The notes: a model not told the origin generated them from the letters alone. A stretch of 18,345 nucleotides of DNA from Candidatus Aenigmatarchaeota archaeon (GCA_043808015.1 JAZDFI010000019.1:1-18345); one strand, 5' to 3'. Shown: positions 984 to 15,904, numbered from the stretch's first letter. Made by a program: numbers and translations.

Positions 984-1050
984 TATTTAAATCTAGCTTT
1001 TTTGGCTAGTGCCAACGTCCATTGCCGAACAACTTTTAAAAGGTTTAAAA
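984..1050. promoter_or_regulatory. Divergent archaeal TATA boxes for aglB (minus) and the HMG-CoA synthase operon (plus)
   Basis: TTTAAATA on the minus strand at 991-984, about 22 nt before the aglB ATG. TTTAAAAA on the plus strand at 1043-1050, upstream of ATG 1087. Confidence 0.55.
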
Positions 1051-1086
1051 ACCCACGTGACCCCTTTATTTAATACAGGTTTTTGC

Positions 1087-2130
1087 ATGAAAGCTGGCAT
1101 AGTCGGATATGGAGCCTACGTCCCGCAGTGGAGAATAAAAGCATCGAACATTGCGCGGATATGGGGTTCTGACCCGGAAAGGCTCAAAGATTTTCTTGAA
1201 GAGAAAAGCGTTCCTGGTCCGGATGAAGATGCTGCAACAATGGCAGTCGAAGCCAGCCTTCGCGCAGTCGCAGTCGCTGGCATAGACCCGATTGAAATAG
1301 GAGCGGTCTACGTCGGCAGCGAAAGCCACCCTTATGTCATCAAGCCGACGGCGTCGATAGTCGCTGAAGCGATAGGCGCGACGCCCGAGATGACGGGCGC
1401 AGATCTCGAGTTCGCATGCAAGGCAGGGACGGCAGGCATCCAGATATGCATGGCCATGGCGGAGTCGAATAAGATAAAATACGGGCTTGCCATAGGCTCC
1501 GATACAGCTCAGGGACGGCCCGGCGACGAACTAGAATACACGGCAGCCGCCGGCGCAGGCGCTTACATAATTGGCAGGGAAAACATAATCGCAGAGATAG
1601 AGGATACATATTCATTCACGACCGATACGCCTGATTTCTGGAGGCGCGAAGGAGAGGATTTCCCCCGCCACGGCGGGCGCTTTACTGGCGAACCGGCATA
1701 TTTCAAACACGTCCTGGCAGCGACAAACGGCCTGCTGAAAAAGACAGGGAAAAGCGTGAATGACTTCGATTATTTCGTGTTCCACCAGCCCAATGCCAAG
1801 TTCCCGCTCACCGCGGCGAAAATCCTGGGCATACCGCAGGAAAAAATGACTCGCGGGTTGCTAGTGCCTCAGATAGGCAATACATATTCTGCGGCGACGA
1901 TGATTGGCCTGGCACGCGTCCTCGACGTGGCACATCCGGGCGACAGAATTATGCTGACTTCATTCGGCTCCGGGGCCGGCTCCGACTCGTTCGCCATCAC
2001 AGTCACCAAAAACATCACCAGGATGAGAAAAAAGGAAAACTCCGTCGATGACATGATAAAAATCAAGAGATACCTTGAATATGCCGAATACATCAAATTC
2101 AGGAGAAAAATAAAGGGTGTTCATGCATGA
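1087..2130 (+). CDS. Hydroxymethylglutaryl-CoA synthase, archaeal type
   Basis: Starts [13 protein letters not shown]. Motifs [19 protein letters not shown] (Glu), EFACKAGT (catalytic Cys), FHQPN (His), GNTYS and [10 protein letters not shown] moved the start from 1009 to ATG 1087 because family homology begins there and AGGT lies just upstream. Confidence 0.95.
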
Positions 2131-3314
2131 ACTTGAATAGTATGAAGCCGATAAGAGGCGTTGCCGTGATAGGCACCGGCCTGACCAAGTTCGGCGAGCA
2201 CTGGAACATGGGGCTCAAAGAGCTGGCGGTAGAAGCAGGCATAAAAGCAGTCGAAGACGCAGGCATAACCGGACAGGAACTGCAGCTTCTTGTTGGCGGA
2301 AACATGTCCGGCGGTTTGTTTGCCGGGCAAGAGCATGGTGCAGGCCTGCTGGCGGACTACCTTGGCCTCAACCCAATACCTGCAATAAGGACAGAGGGCG
2401 CGTGCTCTTCTGGTTCGCTTGCAGTAAGAGTCGGATACCTCGCCGTCGCTTCAGGCATGTATGATTTCGTCGCAGTCGGCGGAGTTGAGAAGATGACGGA
2501 CGTTTATGGGCCGCAAGCCACGACTGCGCTATCCGGAGCGATGGATTACGAAACTGAAGCGTATTTCGGCGTCACGTTCCCCGGCATATATGCACTTATC
2601 GCCAAAAGGCACATGCATGATTTCGGCACGACGCGAAGGCAGCTTTCATTGGTGGCTGTAAAAAACCACAGCAATGCCCAGCACAATCCATATGCCCAGT
2701 TCAGAAACAGGATAACCGCCGACGACGTTGAAAAGTCCGCGCTTGTCGCAGATCCGCTAAGACTGCTTGATTGCTCGCCGCTCACGGATGGTGCTGCAAC
2801 CGTCATTCTCGCTCCAGCTGACATAGCCAGAAAATACACAGACACTCCTATTTACATAAAGGCATCGGCTCAAGCGTCCGACACGCTCAGCCTTTTTTCA
2901 AGGCGCAACATAACAACGCTCGATGCGACAGTCCATGCGGTCAGAGACGCTTACAGGCAAGCGAGGATAACGCCTAAAAACGTCGATTTCGCCGAAGTGC
3001 ACGACTGCTTCACCATAGCTGAAATATGCGCTTATGAGGACTTGGGATTCACACAGAAAGGCAAGGGCGGAAAAATGATAGAAAATGGCGAAGTCGAGCT
3101 CGGCGGCAGAATCCCTATCAACACATCAGGCGGTCTGAAAGCGAAGGGCCATCCGGTCGGAGCTACAGGAGTGGCCCAGATAGCCGAATTGGTAGCCCAG
3201 CTGAGAGGCGAGGCCGGCAAACGCCAGGTAAAAAACGCCCACATAGGCATGGCGCATAACGTAGGCGGATCCGGTGCGACAGTAAGCGTTCACATACTTT
3301 CAAACAAGAAATGA
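2127..3314 (+). CDS. Acetoacetyl-CoA thiolase (archaeal, SCP2-like thiolase)
   Basis: EGACSSG (catalytic Cys), [30 protein letters not shown] and HNVGG. ATGA overlap with the HMGS stop indicates translational coupling. Confidence 0.95.
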
Positions 3315-3330
3315 TTCATGTTCAGGATTG

Positions 3331-3741
3331 ATGCATATGACAAAAGAATTCGCGGTTCCGTTCCACTGGAGACGCTTTAGAGAGCGCTACCAGCTCATAG
3401 GCTCCAAGTGCGACCACTGCAAAAAAACATTCTATCCCATAAGAATCATATGTCCCTATTGCAGAAGATCGGGACATATGAAGGATATGAAGTTTTCCGG
3501 AAATGGAAAGGTTTTTTCATACACCATAATACGCGCCGCGCCGGAAGGCTTTAAGGAATACACCCCTTACATAATCGCGATAGTTGAACTGGAAGAGGGC
3601 GCCAAGCTGCTTTCGCAGGTGGTTGACTGCGACCATAAAGACATCAAAATAGGCATGAGGGTCAAGTCGTGCTTCAGAAAGATAAGAAGCGAAAACGATA
3701 CAGGCATCGTTCTTTATGGTTTCAAATTCAAGCCGGCCTGA
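3331..3741 (+). CDS. DUF35 Zn-ribbon/OB-fold protein, scaffold subunit of the archaeal thiolase-HMGS complex
   Basis: CDHC...CPYC zinc ribbon, GKVFSYTII, PYIIAIVELEEG, IGMRVKSCFRK and YGFKF. It directly follows the thiolase. The start could be 3328, 3331 or 3337. Confidence 0.92.
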   Translation: MHMTKEFAVPFHWRRFRERYQLIGSKCDHCKKTFYPIRIICPYCRRSGHMKDMKFSGNGKVFSYTIIRAAPEGFKEYTPYIIAIVELEEGAKLLSQVVDCDHKDIKIGMRVKSCFRKIRSENDTGIVLYGFKFKPA

Positions 3742-3764
3742 TTTCATAAAACCGCCGTTATAAA

Positions 3765-3772
3765 TTTAAAAA
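3765..3772 (+). promoter_or_regulatory. TATA box for the DUF1015 gene (probably a leaderless transcript)
   Basis: TTTAAAAA at 3765-3772, about 23 nt before ATG 3795, with no Shine-Dalgarno sequence in between. Confidence 0.55.
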
Positions 3773-3794
3773 CCGGGTGCCATAATATAATTCT

Positions 3795-5105
3795 ATGGTC
3801 AACATCAAGCCATTTCCAGGATACCGCTACAACACGGAAAAAGTCAGAATGGAAGATGCCTTTTCACCTCCGTATGATGTTATAAATCCGGCAATGCAGG
3901 AGGAGCTTTACAAAAAATCAGCCTACAACATAGTCAGGATAATACTGGGCAAGGACGAAAAAGACGATAACGAAACAAAAAATAAATACACGCGCGCCGC
4001 CAGCTTCTTCAGAACATGGATAAAGAGCGGGCATATCAAACAGGATGACAAACCGCACATGTACGTGTACTCGCAGGAATTCCTAGCGGGTGGCAAAAAA
4101 ATGGAAAGAACCGGTCTTATAACAACAACCGAGCTCGAGGCGCTGGGAAAGAACATACTGCCGCATGAATTCACGCTGAGCGGTCCGAAGGTCGGCAGGA
4201 AAATCCTCCTTGAAAAAACAGAGGCCAACTTCGGCCAGATATTTTCCATATACCTGGACAAAAAGATGATAGTGGAGTCCATTCTTGAAAATGAGAAAAA
4301 GAAGGCGCCCGAATTCGACGTGGTCGACTTCGAGGGAATAAGGCACAAGCTCTGGACAATAAAGGACGAAACTGCGATAAAAAAAATAATAGAAGTCATG
4401 CGCGACAAGAAAATTTTCATCGCGGACGGTCACCACAGATACGAAACGTCACTGGAATATAGCAAAGAGCATACGGATAACGAGAAAGCAAAATACATAA
4501 TGATGACGCTGGTGAACATAATGAATAAAGGCCTTGTAATACTTCCGACGCACAGGCTCGTTAAAGACATCAGCGTTGATGCAGCCAAATTAATAGACGG
4601 GCTGAAGCGCAATTTCAGCATAGAAATTTTCGAATCCGGCAAAGACAACGGGAAGGAAGCCAGAGAAAAGATGTTCAAAGGGATGAAGACAAACGAGAGC
4701 AAACATGCATTCGGCATGTATCTCGGCGGCAACAGATATTTCGTTCTCACGCTTACGGATGAAAAGATTATGGATCAAAAAGCCAAAGACCACGCGAAGC
4801 CATGGAGGCGACTGGATGTAAGCATCCTGCACACGCTGATATTGGACGGTCTTCTGGGGATTGATACGAGCAAGCCCGAAAAACAGCAGTATATAGAATA
4901 CATGAAGGACACAAAGGACGCCGTTGATGAATGTGTGAATAAGATCAAAGGCGGAGCATGCAAGGTCGTGTTTTTCATGAACCCGACAAAAATAGATGAA
5001 GTCGTGGACGTGGCTGAGAGCGGCGAGCGGATGCCGCAGAAGTCGACGTTCTTCTACCCGAAGGTTTATACCGGATTAGTGATGTACAGGTTCGGGGAAA
5101 AATAA
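3795..5105 (+). CDS. DUF1015 family protein (ParB/Srx-like catalytic core; candidate serine kinase/phosphoserine phosphotransferase)
   Basis: Hallmark segments IKPFPGYRY, SPPYDVI, ILPHEFT, FIADGHHRY, ILPTHRLV and MPQKSTFFYPKVYTGL. The family call is confident; the function is inferred. Confidence 0.88.
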   Translation: MVNIKPFPGYRYNTEKVRMEDAFSPPYDVINPAMQEELYKKSAYNIVRIILGKDEKDDNETKNKYTRAASFFRTWIKSGHIKQDDKPHMYVYSQEFLAGGKKMERTGLITTTELEALGKNILPHEFTLSGPKVGRKILLEKTEANFGQIFSIYLDKKMIVESILENEKKKAPEFDVVDFEGIRHKLWTIKDETAIKKIIEVMRDKKIFIADGHHRYETSLEYSKEHTDNEKAKYIMMTLVNIMNKGLVILPTHRLVKDISVDAAKLIDGLKRNFSIEIFESGKDNGKEAREKMFKGMKTNESKHAFGMYLGGNRYFVLTLTDEKIMDQKAKDHAKPWRRLDVSILHTLILDGLLGIDTSKPEKQQYIEYMKDTKDAVDECVNKIKGGACKVVFFMNPTKIDEVVDVAESGERMPQKSTFFYPKVYTGLVMYRFGEK

Positions 5106-5151
5106 CATTTTTAAGTTCGATAGTAAATTTCTATAATAGGTTGGTGATTTA

Positions 5152-6237
5152 ATGAAAAGTTGGGAAAAACACGTCAAGTTGTTCATACCGGGCCCGGTTG
5201 AGGTTTACCCGGACGTACGTGCAGAAATGGCGAGGCCGATGATAGGTCACAGGTCATCCGCTTTTCAGGATCTATACGCAGATACGATTGCAAAGCTGAA
5301 AAAAGTCCTATTTACGCAGAATGACGCATTCCTCTCGACGTCGTCAGCGACGGGCGTCTGGGAGGCGTGCGCCAGGAACTGCATCGAGAAAAAAGCGCTT
5401 GCATGCGTCAATGGCGCATTCTCGGGGAGCTGGCACAAAGTGGCTCTGGCGAACGGAAAGGATGCCGATAAAATCGAGGTGCCCATGGGCAAGGCCATAA
5501 AGCCGGAGATGATAGACGAGAAGCTGGCGACTGGCGAATACGACTCGCTCCTCTTCGTTCACAACGAGACGAGCACGGGAGTGGCGAATCCGCTTTACGA
5601 AGTGGCCGAAGTCATGAAAAAATATCCGGACGTTCTTTTCATGGTGGATGCCGTGAGCTCCATGACGGGCATGAAAATAGAAGTGGACAAGCTCGGCATA
5701 GACGTATGCCTTGCAAGCGTGCAGAAGGCTTTCGCGCTTCCGCCGGGACTCGCCGTCTTCACTGTCAGCAAGAAGGCGTACGAGCGCGCCGAAAAAATAA
5801 AAAACCGCGGCTATTACTTCGACTTCCTTGTTTTCAAAAAATACGCCGAAAAAAACCAGACGCCTTCGACGCCGGCGATACCGCAGATATACGGTCTCAA
5901 CATGCAGCTCGACAAAATGCTGCACGAAGGCATGGAAGCGCGCTTCGAGCGCCACAAGCACATGGCCGATTTCACGAGAAAGTGGGCGCTTGACCGCGGC
6001 TTCGAGCTGTTCGCGGAAAAGGGGTACGAGTCGAACACTCTTACCACCGTGAACAACAACAAGGGAATCGTCGTTGCGGACCTCATAAAGAAACTCGAAC
6101 AAAAAGGTATGACCATAAGCAACGGCTACAAGGACCTTAAAGAGAAAAACTTCCGCATTGCCCACATGGGCGACATGAAGATTGCAGACATAAAAGAGCT
6201 GCTTGAAACGATAGATGAAATTCTGAGGGGAGGATAA
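5152..6237 (+). CDS. Class V PLP-dependent aminotransferase (serine-pyruvate/archaeal phosphoserine aminotransferase-like)
   Basis: FIPGP, IGHRS, VHNETSTG, VDAVSS, SVQKAF (PLP Lys), TPSTP and FRIAHMG. GGTGA RBS upstream. A SerC role is inferred from adjacency to serA. Confidence 0.88.
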   Translation: MKSWEKHVKLFIPGPVEVYPDVRAEMARPMIGHRSSAFQDLYADTIAKLKKVLFTQNDAFLSTSSATGVWEACARNCIEKKALACVNGAFSGSWHKVALANGKDADKIEVPMGKAIKPEMIDEKLATGEYDSLLFVHNETSTGVANPLYEVAEVMKKYPDVLFMVDAVSSMTGMKIEVDKLGIDVCLASVQKAFALPPGLAVFTVSKKAYERAEKIKNRGYYFDFLVFKKYAEKNQTPSTPAIPQIYGLNMQLDKMLHEGMEARFERHKHMADFTRKWALDRGFELFAEKGYESNTLTTVNNNKGIVVADLIKKLEQKGMTISNGYKDLKEKNFRIAHMGDMKIADIKELLETIDEILRGG

Positions 6238-6238
6238 A

Positions 6239-7120
6239 ATGAAAATCCTTATTTCGGACCCGTTTTCGAAGGACCTGCCAAAAAGACTTTCCGAATTCGG
6301 CACGGTCACGGAAAACAAAGACGAATTTTCAGATGCCGATGTAATACTCGTCAGGAGCGCGACCAAGGTCGACAGGGCATACATAGACAACGCAAAAAAC
6401 ATGAAGCTGGTCATACGCGGCGGCGTCGGACTCGACAACATAGACGTCAACCACTGCAACGGGAAAGGCATATTGGTGAAGAACACGCCGGAAGCATCAA
6501 GCATCGCCGTCGCCGAGCTCGTATTCGCCCTAATGCTCGGCATAACGAGAAACGTCGTGACAGCGCACAATTCCACGAAAAAAGGCGAGTGGGTCAAAGG
6601 CCTCAAGGGCACCGAACTTTACGGCAAAACTCTTGGCGTCATCGGCCTCGGCAGGATAGGGACCGAGGTGGCGAAACGCGCGAAGGCGTTCGGCATGAAC
6701 GTAGTCACGGGCAACGAGCATGGCAGACCGACAGAGTATGCGCACGCCATCCCTACGGAAGACGTCTTCAGCAAGTCGGATTTCATATCGCTTCACGTGC
6801 CGCTCACGGACGAAACGAAGGGAATGATAAACAAAAGCACAATCGAAAAAATGAAAGACGGCGTGATAATCATAAACACGGCTAGGGGGAAACTCGTCAA
6901 CGAAAATGACCTTGCCGAGTCCCTGAAAACGGGCAAGGTAAAATACGCGGGACTCGATGTTTACCAACAAGAGCCGCCAGTGGGATCACCGCTGCTTTCA
7001 CTCGAGAATGTCCTACTGATGCCGCATCTAGGGGCGCAGACCGCAGAGAACATGCAGCGCATAGGCGATATTGTTTATCATCAGATAAAGGATTTCAAGC
7101 ACGCCAATCCTAAACTATGA
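6239..7120 (+). CDS. serA: D-3-phosphoglycerate dehydrogenase / D-2-hydroxyacid dehydrogenase, short form without an ACT domain
   Basis: VRSATK, RGGVGLDNID, GLGRIG (Rossmann), INTARG, LDV..EP and PHLGAQT. GGAGG RBS; begins 1 nt after the aminotransferase stop. Confidence 0.8.
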   Translation: MKILISDPFSKDLPKRLSEFGTVTENKDEFSDADVILVRSATKVDRAYIDNAKNMKLVIRGGVGLDNIDVNHCNGKGILVKNTPEASSIAVAELVFALMLGITRNVVTAHNSTKKGEWVKGLKGTELYGKTLGVIGLGRIGTEVAKRAKAFGMNVVTGNEHGRPTEYAHAIPTEDVFSKSDFISLHVPLTDETKGMINKSTIEKMKDGVIIINTARGKLVNENDLAESLKTGKVKYAGLDVYQQEPPVGSPLLSLENVLLMPHLGAQTAENMQRIGDIVYHQIKDFKHANPKL

Positions 7121-8120
7121 AGTCCATGTCCATCCACGAATAGCTCAGAATATTGCCGGCCCTAAGTGCAACATCGATCTGGAAATCATTCGAATGCCTG
7201 AGGAATTTCCTGAAAACGATGCCTATTTTTATCTGTTTCGCCAGCGTCTTTTTCCATTCCCTTTCGTATTCGCTCAAAACAGAGGCGCTGAAATCATCGA
7301 ACCTGAACGCTTTCTCGACGACTCTGGCTGCGATTTCCGCGCATGTCAGGCCGTAAATGACGCCCCCGCCAGACCACGGTTTTACCTGGCCGGCCGAGCT
7401 GCCTATGAGCAACGTTAGTTCTCCATAAGTTTTTTTTGCCGGGCCGATCGGAATCATGCCCGCGAATTTTTCATATTTTTTTATGCCGAAGAATCTATCG
7501 ATATCCGAGAATTTGACGTCACTTCCCCAAGCACCATATTCAGTCGTCTTTCCACGCGGTATTCTCCAAAAAAAGCCGTCTCGCAGGAGCTTTTTGTTAA
7601 AATAAAGGTCGACATTGCTGGCACGGCTTTCGTTGTTTGTGATGGCTATAAGCCCTTTGACGGAGTTCCTTCTGCCGGCAAGCAGCGAGTTGGGGCCGTC
7701 ACAAACGAGCGCTATCCTGCCAGTTACAACGCCACTGTTCGTTGAAATCTCCGCGCAGTCGCTTTTTATTTTTATTCCGGTAACCCTGCGGTTCAGCATT
7801 ATTTTACAACCAGCGAGCTTGGCTATTTTTTTGTCGAAAAGTGGGCGGTTTATGACATACGCGGCCCGCGGTCTTCTCAGCACAAGTTCGCTTTTTCGGG
7901 AATGGAGAACTGCGGAATCGACGGTATTTTCCACGACATCCCAGCTTTTTATATCCGGAAAAAACTTCTCTATGTTTCTCGATATAAGGCCTGAGCATCT
8001 CAGAGGCTTGCCTATTTCACGGTCTTCTTCGATAACCAGAACATCGTATCCCATCTTCCTGCAGAGCCCGGCCGCATAGAGACCGACAGGGCCGCCGCCT
8101 ACAACGATTACATCGTGCAT
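7110..8120 (-). CDS. Geranylgeranyl reductase-family FAD-dependent oxidoreductase
   Basis: DVIVVGGGPVG, PLRCSGLIS, INRPLFD, CDGPNS, FFWRIP and AGQVKPWSGGG. ATG 8120 is preferred over 8138 or 8165 on homology start and TATA spacing. Confidence 0.85.
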   Translation of the reverse strand: MHDVIVVGGGPVGLYAAGLCRKMGYDVLVIEEDREIGKPLRCSGLISRNIEKFFPDIKSWDVVENTVDSAVLHSRKSELVLRRPRAAYVINRPLFDKKIAKLAGCKIMLNRRVTGIKIKSDCAEISTNSGVVTGRIALVCDGPNSLLAGRRNSVKGLIAITNNESRASNVDLYFNKKLLRDGFFWRIPRGKTTEYGAWGSDVKFSDIDRFFGIKKYEKFAGMIPIGPAKKTYGELTLLIGSSAGQVKPWSGGGVIYGLTCAEIAARVVEKAFRFDDFSASVLSEYEREWKKTLAKQIKIGIVFRKFLRHSNDFQIDVALRAGNILSYSWMDMDFIV

Positions 8121-8143
8121 CCCAAGCTTCCTGCCCATGTAAT

Positions 8144-8157
8144 TGTTTATATAAACA
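8144..8157. promoter_or_regulatory. Palindromic TATA element TGTTTATATAAACA between the divergent GGR and secF genes
   Basis: Perfect 14-bp palindrome containing TTTATATA on both strands. Its centre is about 30 nt from both ATG 8120 (minus) and ATG 8180 (plus). Confidence 0.7.
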
Positions 8158-8179
8158 TTATTCAAATAGTTAAGATATT

Positions 8180-9028
8180 ATGAAGTTCGACCACAAGATG
8201 CTTCTCGTAATACCGGTGGCAGTTTTTTTGATATCTGCAGCCATATTTGTCAGCCAGTATGCCCAGACAGGCGAACTGCTTAAACGCTCGATAGACATGA
8301 AAGGCGGCCTTGTGATAACGATAAACACTGAAGAAAGGCTGGACACGGCCGCGATAGAGCTGGGACTCAAGCAGAATTTCAGCCCGGTCAATGTCAGGGA
8401 AGTGCGCAGCTTCCGCGGCTACGGAACCGTGATAGAAACGTCCGCGGACATGAAATCTGATGACATAATTGCCGCGGTGAAAGCGATGGGATTCGACGCA
8501 TCCAACACGGACGTCGAGTCGATAGGCCCGTCGCTTGGCGCGTCTTTCTGGAACCAGGCGCAGATAGCGATTCTGGGTGCGTTCATCCTCATGAGCATCG
8601 TGGTTTTCATAATATTCAGGTCCGTCGTCCCTTCGGCGGCTGTCATACTTTCGGCTTTCTGTGACATTTTCATGACGCTGGCTTTCATGCAGCTTTTCGG
8701 AATAGAGCTCTCGCTAGCGGGACTAGCCGCGATACTGATGCTGATAGGTTACTCCGTCGATACGGACATAATGCTCACATCACGCCTGCTCAAAGAATCC
8801 GACGATAAAACACTTAACGACAAGCTCAGGCATGCGCTAAAGACTGGCCTTACCATGACGCTCACGTCGATAGGAGCGCTCATGCCGCTTCTGGTGCTTG
8901 GCATTTCGCCTGTAATAACGCAGATAGCGACAGTCCTGATGATAGGCCTGGCTTTCGACATCATGAACACGTGGCTGACGAACTACGCGATACTGAAGTG
9001 GTATTGCGAAAAGAAAGGAATGGTATAA
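8180..9028 (+). CDS. secF: Protein translocase subunit SecF
   Basis: N-terminal TM, SIDMKGG, IGPSLG, five further TMs and IGYSVDTDI (conserved Asp). Confidence 0.95.
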   Translation: MKFDHKMLLVIPVAVFLISAAIFVSQYAQTGELLKRSIDMKGGLVITINTEERLDTAAIELGLKQNFSPVNVREVRSFRGYGTVIETSADMKSDDIIAAVKAMGFDASNTDVESIGPSLGASFWNQAQIAILGAFILMSIVVFIIFRSVVPSAAVILSAFCDIFMTLAFMQLFGIELSLAGLAAILMLIGYSVDTDIMLTSRLLKESDDKTLNDKLRHALKTGLTMTLTSIGALMPLLVLGISPVITQIATVLMIGLAFDIMNTWLTNYAILKWYCEKKGMV

Positions 9029-10860
9029 TGTTGAAATATTGGAGAATCCTGCTGCTGGTGATAATGGTTTCGGCGAGCCTTCTCGCCATATTCCTGAAAC
9101 CCCAGTATATGGGCGTCCAGGTGGCTTATGTTTATTCGGATTCGCCTGCCAAAGGCATCATACAAAACGGCATGATAATAACGGACGTCAACGGCAAGCC
9201 TGTGCAAAACTCGCAGGACTGGGATGCCGTCGTCAAAGGGTACGCGGGCCAGATTAAGATAAAGGCAAACAAGCTGGAATACAAGTTCAACGTCAGCCAG
9301 AACGCGACCGGCATCGGCATAGAGGTCACTGATATTGAAAGGACGAACCTCGATTTCGGCCTGGACATCAAAGGCGGCACCAGAATACTTCTCAGGCCTA
9401 AAGAAAACGCCTCGGCCCAGATGCTCGAGCAGATAATAGGCACGCTCCAGACAAGGGCGAACATATACGGCCTCAAGGAAATACGCTTCATCCCGGTCTC
9501 CGGCATCGGCGGCGAATATTACGTGCAGATAGAGACGACCGGCGTAGGCAACGAGATAGTCGACACTCTTCTTTCGAAACAGGGAAGCTTCGAGGCAAAG
9601 ATATCCAAACCGGTCGCCATAAGCGACGGCAAGGGAGTTCTTGAGCTCGGCCAGAACAAGTACGACGTCGAATATGCCGGCGGCGATGCGGTAAAAATAT
9701 CCAACCTGACAGTATCGCTTAATGACACTTTCACTCTCGATGACGTGGATTTTGAGCTGGTCAACATAACCAGCACAGGTGACATAATACTGCTCGGTTC
9801 GGCCTACAAAGGCGATGACATAGAGCTCGTATACAGCGATGCGCAGCATTCGGGCATAATGCCCGGCAACAATTATTTTGAGTTTTACTTCGGCATTCTG
9901 GTATCGGAAAAGGGTGCGAACCGCTTCGCGAAAATAACATCCGGCATACCTTCACAACTCGACCTAAACTCGGGCGAATATTACCTGAAGGACTGCCGCA
10001 TATTCCTGTTCCTTGACAACCAGCTGGTTTCCGACCTTAGAATATCATCCAACCTTGGCGGCAAGGCATACACGACGCCGCAAATAACTGGTTCGCGCGA
10101 AACTAAGGAAACCGCCCTCGAAGAGAAACTCAAGCTTCAGACCATCCTGAGATCCGGCGCGCTTCCGGCGAGTCTGGAAACAGTCTCTGTAGGCGTGATT
10201 TCACCGACCCTCGGCAGCAATTTCATGCCGTCGATAGCGTTTGCCATGGCGCTGGCCGCGGTGATGGTAATGGCAGTGATTTTCATAAGATACAGGAAAC
10301 TGAGCGTTTCATTACCAATCGCGGCGATAGGCTTTTCCGAAGTAATCATAATCTTAGGCATAGCCTCGAACAACGACATGGTGATATGGGGACCCGTTAT
10401 CATATTGAACATCACGCTCATCGCGCTGGCATGGTGGAAGAAATACGAAGTCGACCCGACCGCGTGGATCGGAGCCGTTCTCATTCCAATGCTCGGCCTG
10501 TTCATGTCGTGGACCATAGATTTGCCGGTCATAAGCGGCATAATAGCGACGCTGGGCATAGGCGTCGACAGCATGATAGTCATAGCCGACGAAACGCTTT
10601 CCAAGAAGACGGAAGAAAAGAAAATAATGTATACAATGCGCGACAAGATAAAGCGCGCCCTCTTCATAATTTTCGGTTCCGCTTCGACGATAATAGCCGC
10701 TATGGTGCCCATCGGCTTCATCGGCATAGGCTTCGTCCGCGGCTTCGCCATAACCACAGTCATAGGCGTTCTTGTCGGCATTCTAGTGACAAGACCCGCT
10801 TACGCCGAGGTCGTGGAGATGGCGGCTGAAAGGGCTAAGCATAAAGAACACAAAAAATAG
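9028..10860 (+). CDS. secD: Protein translocase subunit SecD with an N-terminal PDZ-like domain
   Basis: MLKYWRILLL TM, GLDIKGG, LRSGALP, ISPTLG, GIGVDS (conserved Asp) and VRGFA...TRPAY. The TAATG overlap with the secF stop gives start 9028 rather than 8971. Confidence 0.93.
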   Translation: MLKYWRILLLVIMVSASLLAIFLKPQYMGVQVAYVYSDSPAKGIIQNGMIITDVNGKPVQNSQDWDAVVKGYAGQIKIKANKLEYKFNVSQNATGIGIEVTDIERTNLDFGLDIKGGTRILLRPKENASAQMLEQIIGTLQTRANIYGLKEIRFIPVSGIGGEYYVQIETTGVGNEIVDTLLSKQGSFEAKISKPVAISDGKGVLELGQNKYDVEYAGGDAVKISNLTVSLNDTFTLDDVDFELVNITSTGDIILLGSAYKGDDIELVYSDAQHSGIMPGNNYFEFYFGILVSEKGANRFAKITSGIPSQLDLNSGEYYLKDCRIFLFLDNQLVSDLRISSNLGGKAYTTPQITGSRETKETALEEKLKLQTILRSGALPASLETVSVGVISPTLGSNFMPSIAFAMALAAVMVMAVIFIRYRKLSVSLPIAAIGFSEVIIILGIASNNDMVIWGPVIILNITLIALAWWKKYEVDPTAWIGAVLIPMLGLFMSWTIDLPVISGIIATLGIGVDSMIVIADETLSKKTEEKKIMYTMRDKIKRALFIIFGSASTIIAAMVPIGFIGIGFVRGFAITTVIGVLVGILVTRPAYAEVVEMAAERAKHKEHKK

Positions 10861-13698: not shown

Positions 13699-13731
13699 CA
13701 GATTGATTTAAGTTAGAATATGGTGATTTCA

Positions 13732-15012
13732 ATGGCAGAAGAATTCCATGAATTTTACAAGAAGTCCGTCGAAGAGCGACTCAATATACTCAAGCATGCA
13801 GCCAGCCTCACTGATGATGAAATCAAGGTTCTACGGGGAAGCGCGATAGGCATGGGTATCGCCGATCGCATGATAGAAAACGTCGTGGGAACGTGCGAAC
13901 TGCCAATCGGCCTCGGCCTCAATTTTCTCGTCAACGGAAAAGAATACATAGTCCCTATGTGCATCGAAGAGCCGTCTGTTGTGGCGGCGGCATCGTATGC
14001 CGCCAAACTCGCCAGGCCAGGAGGCGGCTTTAAAACATCCAGCGACGACCCCATAATGATAGGGCAGATACAGATCCTGGGGTTCAAAAACATAAAAGAT
14101 GCGAAGGCTTCGATACTCAGAAAAAAGGCGCAGATAATATCCAAGGCCAACGAGAGGGACTCGGTCCTCGTCAGCTTCGGCGGCGGGGCGAAGGATATGG
14201 AAGTCAGGGAAATCAAGTCCGAAATAGGCACCATGATAGTGGTTCATCTTCTTGTTGATGTGCGCGATGCGATGGGCGCGAACGCCGTCAATACAATGTG
14301 CGAGGCGGTTTCACCGTTCCTGGAAGAGCTTACGGGCGGGCACGTGCGACTCAAAATAATATCCAACCTCGCGGACAGGCGGCTTGCGAGAGCGAAAGCC
14401 GTGTGGAAGAAGGACGAGCTCGAAAAATCGACAAAAGGCCTCATGAAAGGAAGCGACGTCATCGACGCGATAATAGAAGCATACCAGTTCGCAGCGAACG
14501 ATCCTTACAGATGCTCTACGCACAACAAAGGCATAATGAACGGCATTGATGCGGTCGTAATAGCGACTGGCAATGACTTTAGAGCGGTGGAAGCAGGCGC
14601 GCATTCTTACGCATGCGTCTCGGGTACATACAAGCCGCTCACAAAATATTACAAGGACAAAAACGGCGACCTTGTCGGCGAAATAGAATTGCCGATCGCC
14701 GTCGGCACGGTCGGCGGCGCGACCCGCACCAAGCCGGAAGCAAAAATTGCGCTGAAAATTCTGGGAGTCAAAACATCAAAGGAGCTTGCCGAAGTCATCG
14801 CATCAGTCGGGCTCGCCCAGAACTTCGCGGCGTTACGAGCGCTCTCGACGGAAGGGATTCAGCGCGGTCACATGCGCCTGCACGCAAAGAACATCGCAGT
14901 CACTGCAGGCGCGAAAGGCGAAGCCATCGAAAAAGTCGCGGCTGATATGGTAGCAGAAAAAAACATCAGCGTCTCCAGGGCGAAGGAAATGCTGGAAAAT
15001 ATGAAGAAATAG
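13732..15012 (+). CDS. mvaA: HMG-CoA reductase, class II (MvaA type)
   Basis: MIENVVG, EEPSVVAA, DAMGAN, THNKGIMNG, GNDFRAVEA and EGIQRGHMRLH. GGTGA at 13722-13726 favours ATG 13732; ATG 13720 is an alternative. Confidence 0.95.
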   Translation: MAEEFHEFYKKSVEERLNILKHAASLTDDEIKVLRGSAIGMGIADRMIENVVGTCELPIGLGLNFLVNGKEYIVPMCIEEPSVVAAASYAAKLARPGGGFKTSSDDPIMIGQIQILGFKNIKDAKASILRKKAQIISKANERDSVLVSFGGGAKDMEVREIKSEIGTMIVVHLLVDVRDAMGANAVNTMCEAVSPFLEELTGGHVRLKIISNLADRRLARAKAVWKKDELEKSTKGLMKGSDVIDAIIEAYQFAANDPYRCSTHNKGIMNGIDAVVIATGNDFRAVEAGAHSYACVSGTYKPLTKYYKDKNGDLVGEIELPIAVGTVGGATRTKPEAKIALKILGVKTSKELAEVIASVGLAQNFAALRALSTEGIQRGHMRLHAKNIAVTAGAKGEAIEKVAADMVAEKNISVSRAKEMLENMKK

Positions 15013-15247: not shown

Positions 15248-15904
15248 ATGGTTACCGTAAGCCACATCGCGCAGAAAATCGTTAACGAGCGGCCATTCCT
15301 ACAGGAAGCGCTTTCTAAGGGTATAGTGTCTTATGCGGCGCTGGCGAATCAGCTTCACACGGAAATCGAACTTGAGATGGGAAAGAAAATAAAGCCCTTC
15401 ACCATAATCATGGCACTCAGGAGATATGCCGAAAAAATACGCGTCGTGAATGAAAAAATAAAATTCGACTTTCACAGCGAAGTCACTATGAAGACGAACC
15501 TTTGCGACATCTGCATCGTAAAATCGCCGAAACTGATGTCGGAATTGAAAAACCTTTATGGCATGGTTGACTTTTCACGAGGCGATACTTTCAACGTGAG
15601 CCAGGGTAATTATGAAATATCGATAGTGACCAACGAAAAACACAGAAAAAAGCTTCTCTGCCGTCTCAGCAACGAAAAAATAATAGATGTCAAGGAAAAT
15701 CTAGTCTCGCTTTCGCTGCGTTTTCCAGAGGAGTTTTTCGATACACCCGGTGTCATTTTTCAGATAATAAGAAACCTTGCCTGGGAAAAAATCAACATAT
15801 ACGAAGCGATATCGACTCACACGGAGTTCACGCTGGTAATCAGCAATAAGGATTCCGTCAGGGCGTACAGAATGCTGCAGAGCATGACCGAATCAGGCAA
15901 GTGA
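15248..15904 (+). CDS. ACT-domain protein with an N-terminal helical (HTH-like) region; putative amino-acid-responsive regulator
   Basis: N-terminus PFLQEALSKGIVSYAALA...IIMALRRY. C-terminal aspartokinase-like ACT segment TPGVIFQIIRNLAWEKINIYEAISTHTEFTLVI. No kinase domain. Confidence 0.75.
   Translation: MVTVSHIAQKIVNERPFLQEALSKGIVSYAALANQLHTEIELEMGKKIKPFTIIMALRRYAEKIRVVNEKIKFDFHSEVTMKTNLCDICIVKSPKLMSELKNLYGMVDFSRGDTFNVSQGNYEISIVTNEKHRKKLLCRLSNEKIIDVKENLVSLSLRFPEEFFDTPGVIFQIIRNLAWEKINIYEAISTHTEFTLVISNKDSVRAYRMLQSMTESGK

Follow-up and report, generated by a model that had tools for sequence, protein, structure and literature searches.

The window analysed here, a stretch of 18,345 nucleotides from a Candidatus Aenigmatarchaeota archaeon (GCA_043808015.1, JAZDFI010000019.1:1-18345), contains three co-oriented genes encoding a DUF1015 protein (P0001), a class-V aminotransferase (P0002) and a short SerA-like dehydrogenase (P0003). 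According to our analysis, they are best explained as an operon for the phosphorylated serine pathway in which DUF1015 does the step of the phosphoserine phosphatase SerB, a reading that we consider probable. That DUF1015 acts at the phosphoserine/serine step is, on its own, about as probable. A first-pass annotation had proposed such a pathway, with a SerK-like enzyme in place of SerB, and the fold, the active-site residues, the synteny and the exchange with SerB in one operon slot all support it. Our analysis establishes the family membership, the fold, the conserved residues, the operon structure and the exchange with SerB; we infer the substrates (phosphoserine and serine) and the chemistry (nucleotide phosphotransfer).

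DUF1015 and SerB alternate in one operon slot

We compared 201 genomes of the phylum (Aenigmarchaeota-like; labelled G###, the window's genome being G000) and counted as SerB the proteins above the curated TIGR00338 cut-off of 144.15 bits. The numbers involved are low, and genomes that are related do not count as independent cases. DUF1015 scores over its cut-off in 8/201 genomes. Five genomes besides that of the window carry a close copy (46–66% identity), and all five keep the order DUF1015-aminotransferase-dehydrogenase, with both partner matches partial in G195. Of the 201 genomes, exactly these six cassette genomes have a dehydrogenase with 67% identity or more to P0003; the next best match is at 45%. 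SerB over the curated cut-off is absent from all six. It is found in four other genomes (G054, G053, G067 and G056), none of which has DUF1015.

SerB comes first in G054 and G067, followed by a class-V aminotransferase that shares 49% identity with P0002 and by a short dehydrogenase (304 and 314 residues, 42% and 39% identical to P0003). Because SerB adjoins or is fused with the same types of partner in relatives from the phylum, DUF1015 occupies the slot of SerB, i.e. the first place in the arrangement X-aminotransferase-SerA. SerB (TIGR00338; Methanocaldococcus jannaschii phosphoserine phosphatase, 1f5s) is a DxDxT aspartyl-phosphate hydrolase of the HAD type, whereas DUF1015 has an unrelated fold and chemistry, with a ParB/Srx-type nucleotide site. 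P0001 is a functional stand-in for SerB and not a member of the SerB family. Compared to PMC13759103, in the text available from it, the alternation of SerB and DUF1015 in one slot and the SerB fusions are new here.

Two such fusions were observed. The minus strand of contig C3 of G053 encodes a 508-residue SerB-PGDH-like fusion (D-3-phosphoglycerate dehydrogenase; L029:4691-6217) with a SerB part of 197 bits, over the cut-off, followed by an aminotransferase gene at 3615-4694 whose product is 44% identical to P0002. Contig C84 of G094 (L030:3586-6165) contains one frame of 859 residues with SerB-like, class-V aminotransferase and PGDH-like parts, so that a single polypeptide comprises the complete phosphorylated serine pathway. 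The SerB part, at 131 bits, narrowly misses the cut-off, and SerB motif I (FDLEGT) lies just upstream in another frame, an apparent frameshift or assembly error at the N-terminus.

The DUF1015 copies also differ from their partners in how they are related. P0001 is 66% identical to copies from another genus (L019 and L020) and only 46–49% to those of its own genus (L021, L022 and L024), while the adjoining aminotransferase (78–83%) and dehydrogenase (67–74%) are not divided in this way. In a quick tree, two deep DUF1015 subclades lie inside one clade. These comparisons suggest that the DUF1015 gene alone may have been exchanged within the family. Acquisition from outside the lineage was considered and rejected, the copies of the family forming one clade with a support of 99 in the same tree.

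Divergent DUF1015 proteins were observed in two further genomes of two genera, G019 (L023:5090-8529) and G141 (L025:3555-7042). They have 377–387 residues, are 26–27% identical to P0001 and keep 12/12 of the invariant residues described below. Their genes lie directly 5' of genes for a class-Ib (Tyr/Trp) tRNA synthetase and seryl-tRNA synthetase, and neither genome has a SerA-like gene at E<=1e-20. These copies may contribute to serine supply via phosphoserine salvage.

P0001 carries all invariant residues of the DUF1015 family

P0001 matches PF06245 over profile positions 1–325 of 325 (E 2.8e-89; 299.7 bits for a cut-off of 25.8). DUF1015 is its sole Pfam family: there is no ParB_N match in Pfam, no HAD family match in Pfam or NCBIfam, and no NCBIfam model that matches the protein. 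The family is large: it numbers 10311 representative clusters at E<=1e-3, of which 2356 remain at E<=1e-30. Over the full length, named homologues from archaea and bacteria share 43–48% identity with P0001 (43–44% for the bacterial ones). The closest named homologue, at 66%, is from Candidatus Aenigmarchaeota, and its sequence is the copy present in a genome of the window genome's own family.

Two motifs had been singled out in the first-pass annotation, LPHE and IADGHHRY, and their positions were exact: LPHE corresponds to residues 122–125 (PHE codons at 4161-4169) and IADGHHRY to residues 209–216 (codon of Asp211 at 4425-4427). An alignment of 126 sequences has 12 invariant columns, namely P26, H124, E125, R135, D211-G-H-H-R215, K416, P422 and K423, and P0001 carries all 12. 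In the N-terminal part, Y27, D28, N45 and R48 are nearly invariant in addition to the invariant P26. H124, E125 and D211–R215 are invariant in 126/126 homologues as well as in 80/80 of a second set, so that the HE and DGHHR motifs are beyond chance.

The predicted fold of P0001 resembles free serine kinases

A comparison with SerK and SbnI had been suggested as a check of the annotation. We modeled full-length P0001 with AlphaFold2 on the 126-sequence alignment (mean predicted local distance difference test score, pLDDT, 96.5) and searched the PDB with Foldseek. Nine significant matches were obtained (E 3.8e-8 to 1.7e-4, probability 1.00), and all nine are free serine kinases or a homologue: 1vk1, SerK (5x0b, 5x0k, 5x0g, 5x0e and 5x0j) and SbnI (6nr6, 5uje and 5ujd). 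The match spans the whole of SerK and SbnI, i.e. the ParB/Srx-like core plus the C-terminal domain. In P0001 the SerK/SbnI-like core covers residues ~117–434, to which an N-terminal extension and two insertions are added.

The sequence profile of the DUF1015 family, searched against PDB sequences, gave 1vk1 (E 0.0059) and SerK (E 0.04) as the top 4 of 5 matches. This alignment places IADGHHRY on IVDGHHRW, residues 67–74 of SerK and 1vk1 (DGHHR on 69–73), and the stretch at Lys416 (MPQKST) on SPKTT, residues 219–223 of SerK. Because the profile alignment pairs them, DGHHR is one motif common to the DUF1015 and SerK families. The HE region was mapped with a model of residues 117–436 by reading the alignment start points. 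Residue 1 of this truncated model (117 of the full-length protein) pairs with SerK residue 22 in 6/6 rows and with SbnI residue 12 in 3/3, so that Glu125 corresponds to Glu30 of SerK and to residue 20 of SbnI, provided that the eight residues in between are ungapped. Residue 30 of SerK is the position mutated in entries 5x0e, 5x0g, 5x0j and 5x0k, and residue 20 is presumably the counterpart of the catalytic Glu in SbnI. The two motifs had been expected to fall on the SerK active site: DGHHR does so by sequence alignment, and Glu125 by start points under the proviso above. A profile limited to residues 86–240 (80 sequences) did not recover SerK from the PDB, its sole match being unrelated at E 7.2. 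A single-sequence search of the PDB with P0001 gave only FliS matches at chance level (E 0.018).

P0001 differs from both kinases in several respects. SerK (Thermococcus kodakarensis TK0378, ADP-dependent; Pyrococcus furiosus homologue 1vk1) has ~242 residues versus 436 in P0001, which carries ~116 additional N-terminal residues, a spacing of 86 residues between Glu and Asp (39 in SerK) and, behind DGHHR, one more insertion. P0001 and SerK share only 13–15% identity, and the physiological direction of P0001 appears to be towards serine. SbnI (Staphylococcus; 5uje, 5ujd and 6nr6), 12–14% identical to P0001, supplies phosphoserine for the synthesis of the siderophore staphyloferrin B and has a C-terminal regulatory part. 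At profile E values of 0.006–0.04, P0001 is best classed as a superfamily relative of SerK and not as a member of the SerK family.

The partner enzymes fit a phosphoserine pathway

P0002 belongs to Aminotran_5 (PF00266, E 6.5e-27), and its top PDB matches include 2dr1 (3e-77) and the SerC structure 3ffr (1.4e-42). It stays below the cut-off of all 19 NCBIfam families listed, the best of which are glyoxylate or pyruvate aminotransferases; serC_3 gives 97.8 bits for a cut-off of 401.65. As the serC equivalog cut-off is not reached, phosphoserine is assigned as its probable substrate from context. In G054, G067 and G053, the aminotransferases adjoining true SerB share 44–49% identity with P0002; for the central segment of the G094 fusion the value is 35%.

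P0003 consists of 2-Hacid_dh_C (PF02826, 5.4e-61) and 2-Hacid_dh (PF00389, 2.4e-24) with no other domain. Its best family is TIGR01327 (PGDH), with 311.8 bits over positions 33–303 of 525, compared to 222 bits for glyoxylate reductase. The PGDH cut-off of 454 is not reached by P0003, which can match only ~270 of the 525 model positions; the dehydrogenase linked to SerB in G054 likewise falls short (391.8 bits). The top PDB matches of P0003 are PGDHs (1ygy, 1wwk and human PHGDH), and at E<=1e-20 the host genome yields no other 2-hydroxyacid dehydrogenase. The family scores of P0002 and P0003 alone are not decisive for their assignment.

As had been noted in the first-pass annotation, this SerA has neither an ACT domain nor an intervening domain. 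The missing ACT domain does not, however, point to a catabolic role, the dehydrogenases linked to SerB in the phylum being equally short. Since these are short and a metagenome locus (L069) has DUF1015 adjoining a full-length SerA with ACT, DUF1015 and the absence of ACT do not go together.

Relation to bacterial SerBK

The function of DUF1015 has already been proposed and genetically supported in bacteria, and the window locus is an archaeal example from a reduced genome. The name SerBK was given to DUF1015 by Price et al. (GapMind 2026, PLoS Genet, Nov 2026, PMC13759103), who cite Hofmann et al. 2018 for the first suggestion. The preprint 10.1101/2024.10.14.618325 and PMC13759103 report that serA and serC are often near DUF1015 genes, that a high-confidence SerB is missing in 47/50 genomes with close DUF1015 homologues near serA, that E. 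coli serB::kan is rescued by CBO1128, a DUF1015 protein of Clostridium botulinum, and that SbnI is the top Foldseek match of SerBK. In some Desulfurococcales, serK itself adjoins dehydrogenase and aminotransferase genes, as described in PMC5120207.

P0001 belongs to the same full-length Pfam family as CBO1128, CDIF630erm_01132 of Clostridioides difficile and BT1151 of Bacteroides thetaiotaomicron. The likeness to SerBK extends to the link with serA and serC-type genes, the structural resemblance to SbnI and SerK, and a host without SerB above the curated cut-off. Unlike bacterial SerBK, P0001 has an archaeal host (DPANN, ~0.93 Mb), and its partners are an AGXT-type aminotransferase and a short SerA.

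Evidence against the assignment and alternative explanations

Several observations weigh against DUF1015 being the SerB of this operon. The first concerns the wider neighbourhood of the family. The annotation stated that DUF1015 commonly neighbours serC and serA; the link is real, but it is far from general. In a metagenome sample of 80 DUF1015 loci, 34–42% identical to P0001, a P0002-type aminotransferase was found in 6–7/80, a SerA-like gene in 5/80 and both in 3/80. When only the 31 loci flanked by at least 2.5 kb on both sides are counted, the aminotransferase is present in three and the SerA-like gene in three. The aminotransferase search (tblastn with P0002, E<=1e-10) would miss canonical SerC, so that the serC count is a lower bound. 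None of the neighbours is dominant in the 80 loci, the counts being 12 for Amidase_3, 11 for VWA and 8 for Germane. Similarly, the predicted anti-correlation with serB describes the phylum sample, where the two never overlap (0/4 and 0/6), but not the control genomes, in which two of three with DUF1015 (B. thetaiotaomicron and Methanosarcina acetivorans) also have SerB. P0002 and P0003 are below every NCBIfam equivalog cut-off, and the pairing of Glu125 with Glu30 rests on alignment start points and not on a printed superposition. According to PMC13759103, no enzyme assay has been reported for any DUF1015 protein; our full-text literature search, limited to the portions it returned, found no biochemical data on DUF1015 or SerBK.

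The host genome also encodes other candidate phosphatases, which belong on the same side. A HAD-IB SerB-like protein of 223 residues (contig C5:8672-9343), most similar in the PDB to the phosphoserine phosphatase of M. jannaschii (E 3.5e-26), could be the real SerB, although its 106.6 bits are below the SerB cut-off. One IMPase-family gene is present as well, a family that includes another type of SerB according to PMC13759103. Because the assembly is 90.7% complete, the remainder of the genome could still encode a true SerB; a histidine-phosphatase-type phosphoserine phosphatase was not found in the assembled part. The HAD-IB protein is present in 12/16 genomes of the family, including G073, G025 and G026. 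These three have no DUF1015 and no SerA-like gene at E<=1e-20, so the presence of the HAD-IB protein is not tied to the serine pathway. Aligned with five SerB-grade sequences of the phylum, it carries Ser/Thr and Asp at two positions at which these five all have Glu and Arg. We take the two to be Glu20 and Arg56, the residues that bind the substrate in the enzyme of M. jannaschii. These features argue that the HAD-IB protein is probably not the SerB of this pathway.

The same protein is central to the view that the cassette is catabolic only, running from serine through phosphoserine to 3-phosphoglycerate, with any serine synthesis ending with the HAD-IB protein. Besides the occurrence of this paralogue and its match to a phosphoserine phosphatase, the lack of a feedback domain in P0003 is in line with this view, and so are two literature reports: BT1151 is required for L-serine as nitrogen source (10.1101/2024.10.14.618325; PMC13759103), and an assimilation route from serine to 3-phosphoglycerate via SerK has been proposed in Thermococcus (PMC5120207). 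We regard it as quite improbable, given the distribution and the substituted residues of the HAD-IB protein just described; furthermore, homologous operons with SerB must run in the biosynthetic direction, and SerB too is linked to a dehydrogenase of the short form. Because SerB-type operons are only biosynthetic and phosphoglycerate kinase (PGK), GlyA and a CysK/M-type cysteine synthase are all encoded in the host genome, we read the cassette in the direction from 3-phosphoglycerate to serine.

This direction is compatible with DUF1015 being a fully reversible serine kinase, which would conserve the phosphoryl group of phosphoserine by converting ADP or AMP to ATP or ADP. The SerK/SbnI-like fold and residues of P0001 agree with it, as does the ADP dependence of SerK itself (PMC5120207). 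PMC13759103 proposes that SerBKs are serine kinases working in both directions and reports a confident AlphaFold 3 docking of ATP in SerBK (interface predicted template modelling score, ipTM, 0.91). The same text estimates the equilibrium constant of the reverse kinase reaction at 4e-4 and notes that cellular ATP usually exceeds ADP; a phosphoserine/serine ratio of several thousand would then be needed. Moreover, the slot is held in relatives by SerB, a hydrolase, so the operon needs no energy conservation. We regard this phosphoryl-conserving variant as improbable. Much less credit is due to a non-phosphorylated route, composed of a serine-pyruvate or serine-glyoxylate aminotransferase, a hydroxypyruvate reductase and DUF1015 as glycerate kinase. 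P0002 is indeed AGXT-type, with glyoxylate and pyruvate aminotransferases as its best NCBIfam matches, below cut-off, and P0003 does reach 222 bits with glyoxylate reductase. It is very improbable all the same, as P0003 scores 90 bits higher to PGDH, the orthologous aminotransferase and dehydrogenase genes adjoin or fuse with a true phosphoserine phosphatase, and the rescue of E. coli serB by a DUF1015 protein calls for phosphoserine activity (10.1101/2024.10.14.618325). Finally, the ParB-CTPase fold frequently serves as a switch (PMC12704722), and DUF1015 might be a non-catalytic nucleotide switch or pathway regulator like ParB-type CTP switches. We find this hardly credible: P0001 has no DNA-binding or dimerisation domain, its match to the enzymes SerK and SbnI spans both kinases entirely, the catalytic Glu does not vary in the alignment, and an enzyme of E. 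coli can be replaced by a member of the family (10.1101/2024.10.14.618325).

Proposed mechanism

In the phosphorylated pathway that we favour, the short SerA would oxidise 3-phosphoglycerate and the class-V aminotransferase would then yield O-phosphoserine. DUF1015/SerBK would perform the phosphoserine/serine step, the role of SerB in the related genomes. In the active site, Glu125 would act on the serine hydroxyl while the DGHHR loop and the C-terminal Lys would hold the phosphate and the nucleotide. The phosphoryl group of phosphoserine would pass to the bound nucleotide and from there to water, making the enzyme a net phosphatase, and the same site may phosphorylate serine when serine is in excess. 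A net phosphatase is favoured because a kinase running in reverse would need the phosphoserine/serine ratio deduced above from the constant of 4e-4.

We put forward this detailed chemistry, with transfer to a bound nucleotide followed by hydrolysis and a possible forward kinase reaction, as a speculative and tentative model. A precedent is AceK, the isocitrate dehydrogenase kinase/phosphatase of E. coli, whose phosphatase activity is the reverse of its kinase reaction, coupled in a single site to hydrolysis of the bound nucleotide. AceK differs from DUF1015 in its fold and acts on a protein substrate; the likeness concerns the proposed mechanism only. More doubtful still is the broader picture that could be drawn by analogy, in which SerBK would be a two-way enzyme using ADP or AMP as a phosphoryl-shuttling cofactor, exchangeable with SerB, with stand-alone copies that salvage phosphoserine.

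Locus, operon layout and host genome

The features of the locus are collected in Table 1. The three co-oriented genes, the TATA-like box and the absence of a HAD-family serB from the window were all as described in the first-pass annotation: a Pfam scan of 18 open reading frames of the window detected no HAD protein. The TATA-like stretch lies 20–37 nucleotides upstream of the DUF1015 ATG. Boxes of the TTTAAATA type are also found 25–35 nucleotides upstream of seven other window genes, and words of this type occur 18 times per strand across the 18.3 kb. The gap between the DUF1015 and aminotransferase genes is 46 nucleotides, and that between the aminotransferase stop and the dehydrogenase start is 1 nucleotide. 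The operon ends at a convergent geranylgeranyl-reductase-like gene (7110-8165), which overlaps the 3' end of the dehydrogenase gene. Searches of the window for Rfam families and for tRNAs gave 0 matches each, hence no riboswitch.

Table 1. Coordinates of the serine operon and of its sequence features in the window
Feature	Position	Strand	Basis and remarks
DUF1015/SerBK-family protein P0001, 436 residues	3795..5105	+	Open reading frame, Pfam PF06245
Class-V (AGXT-type) aminotransferase P0002, 361 residues	5152..6237	+	Open reading frame, PF00266; probable phosphoserine aminotransferase
Short (type III-like) D-3-phosphoglycerate dehydrogenase P0003, 293 residues, without ASB or ACT domains	6239..7120	+	Pfam domains
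His124-Glu125 (HE)	4164..4169	+	Glu125 is the proposed catalytic base; invariant
Asp211-Gly-His-His-Arg215 (DGHHR)	4425..4439	+	Loop of the ParB/Srx-type nucleotide/phosphate site; invariant
Lys416 ... Pro422-Lys423, motif MPQKST..FYPK	5040..5063	+	C-terminal invariant columns
TATA-like stretch, TTATAAAT then ATTTAAAAA	3758..3776	+	Sequence reading; putative promoter
GGTGAT, Shine-Dalgarno-like, ahead of the aminotransferase gene	5143..5148	+	Sequence reading; putative function
GGAGG ahead of the dehydrogenase gene	6229..6233	+	Sequence reading

The neighbouring genes of the window are archaeal: AglB/STT3, HMG-CoA synthase with thiolase and a DUF35 protein, HMG-CoA reductase, diphthamide synthase, RpoL and Endo_dU. 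The mevalonate genes at 1009-3741 (HMG-CoA synthase, thiolase and the DUF35/OB-fold scaffold protein) are directly 5' of the serine operon, and HMG-CoA reductase is farther along (13720-15012). SecF- and SecD-like genes are located at 8180-9028 and 8971-10860; their listed reading frames overlap by 58 nucleotides, and the start of SecD is probably further downstream than the listed GTG. A stand-alone protein with DUF7523 and ACT_7, weakly like the regulatory part of aspartate kinase, is encoded at 15248-15904, 8 kb from the ACT-less SerA.

The host assembly amounts to 934 kb in 39 contigs and contains a single DUF1015 copy. On contig C15, the cysteine synthase gene (3611-4447; TIGR01136, 378 bits, over the cut-off) is ~5 kb from that of phosphoglycerate kinase (9079-10188). 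Some archaeal cysteine synthases use O-phosphoserine as substrate. In the assembled 90.7% of the genome, SepRS was not found, and ParB_N (PF02195)/SerK gave no match at E<=1.

Implications for serine synthesis in DPANN archaea

The exchange of SerB and DUF1015 within one phylum amounts to a natural swap experiment, the X position being filled by SerB (also as SerB-SerA and SerB-aminotransferase-SerA fusions) or by DUF1015. It supports the functional equivalence of the two proteins independently of the bacterial genetics, and it also supports the assignment of both partners, the short dehydrogenase and the AGXT-type aminotransferase, to the phosphoserine pathway of these archaea. A role for the large DUF1015 family has been proposed only recently. 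If the two-way picture outlined above is true, a shuttle through a bound nucleotide would explain how a kinase fold can drive the synthesis of serine although the equilibrium constant is only ~4e-4, and the DPANN data would mean that evolution treats SerBK and the hydrolase SerB as freely exchangeable in one slot. DPANN genomes annotated as lacking serB need not be serine auxotrophs.

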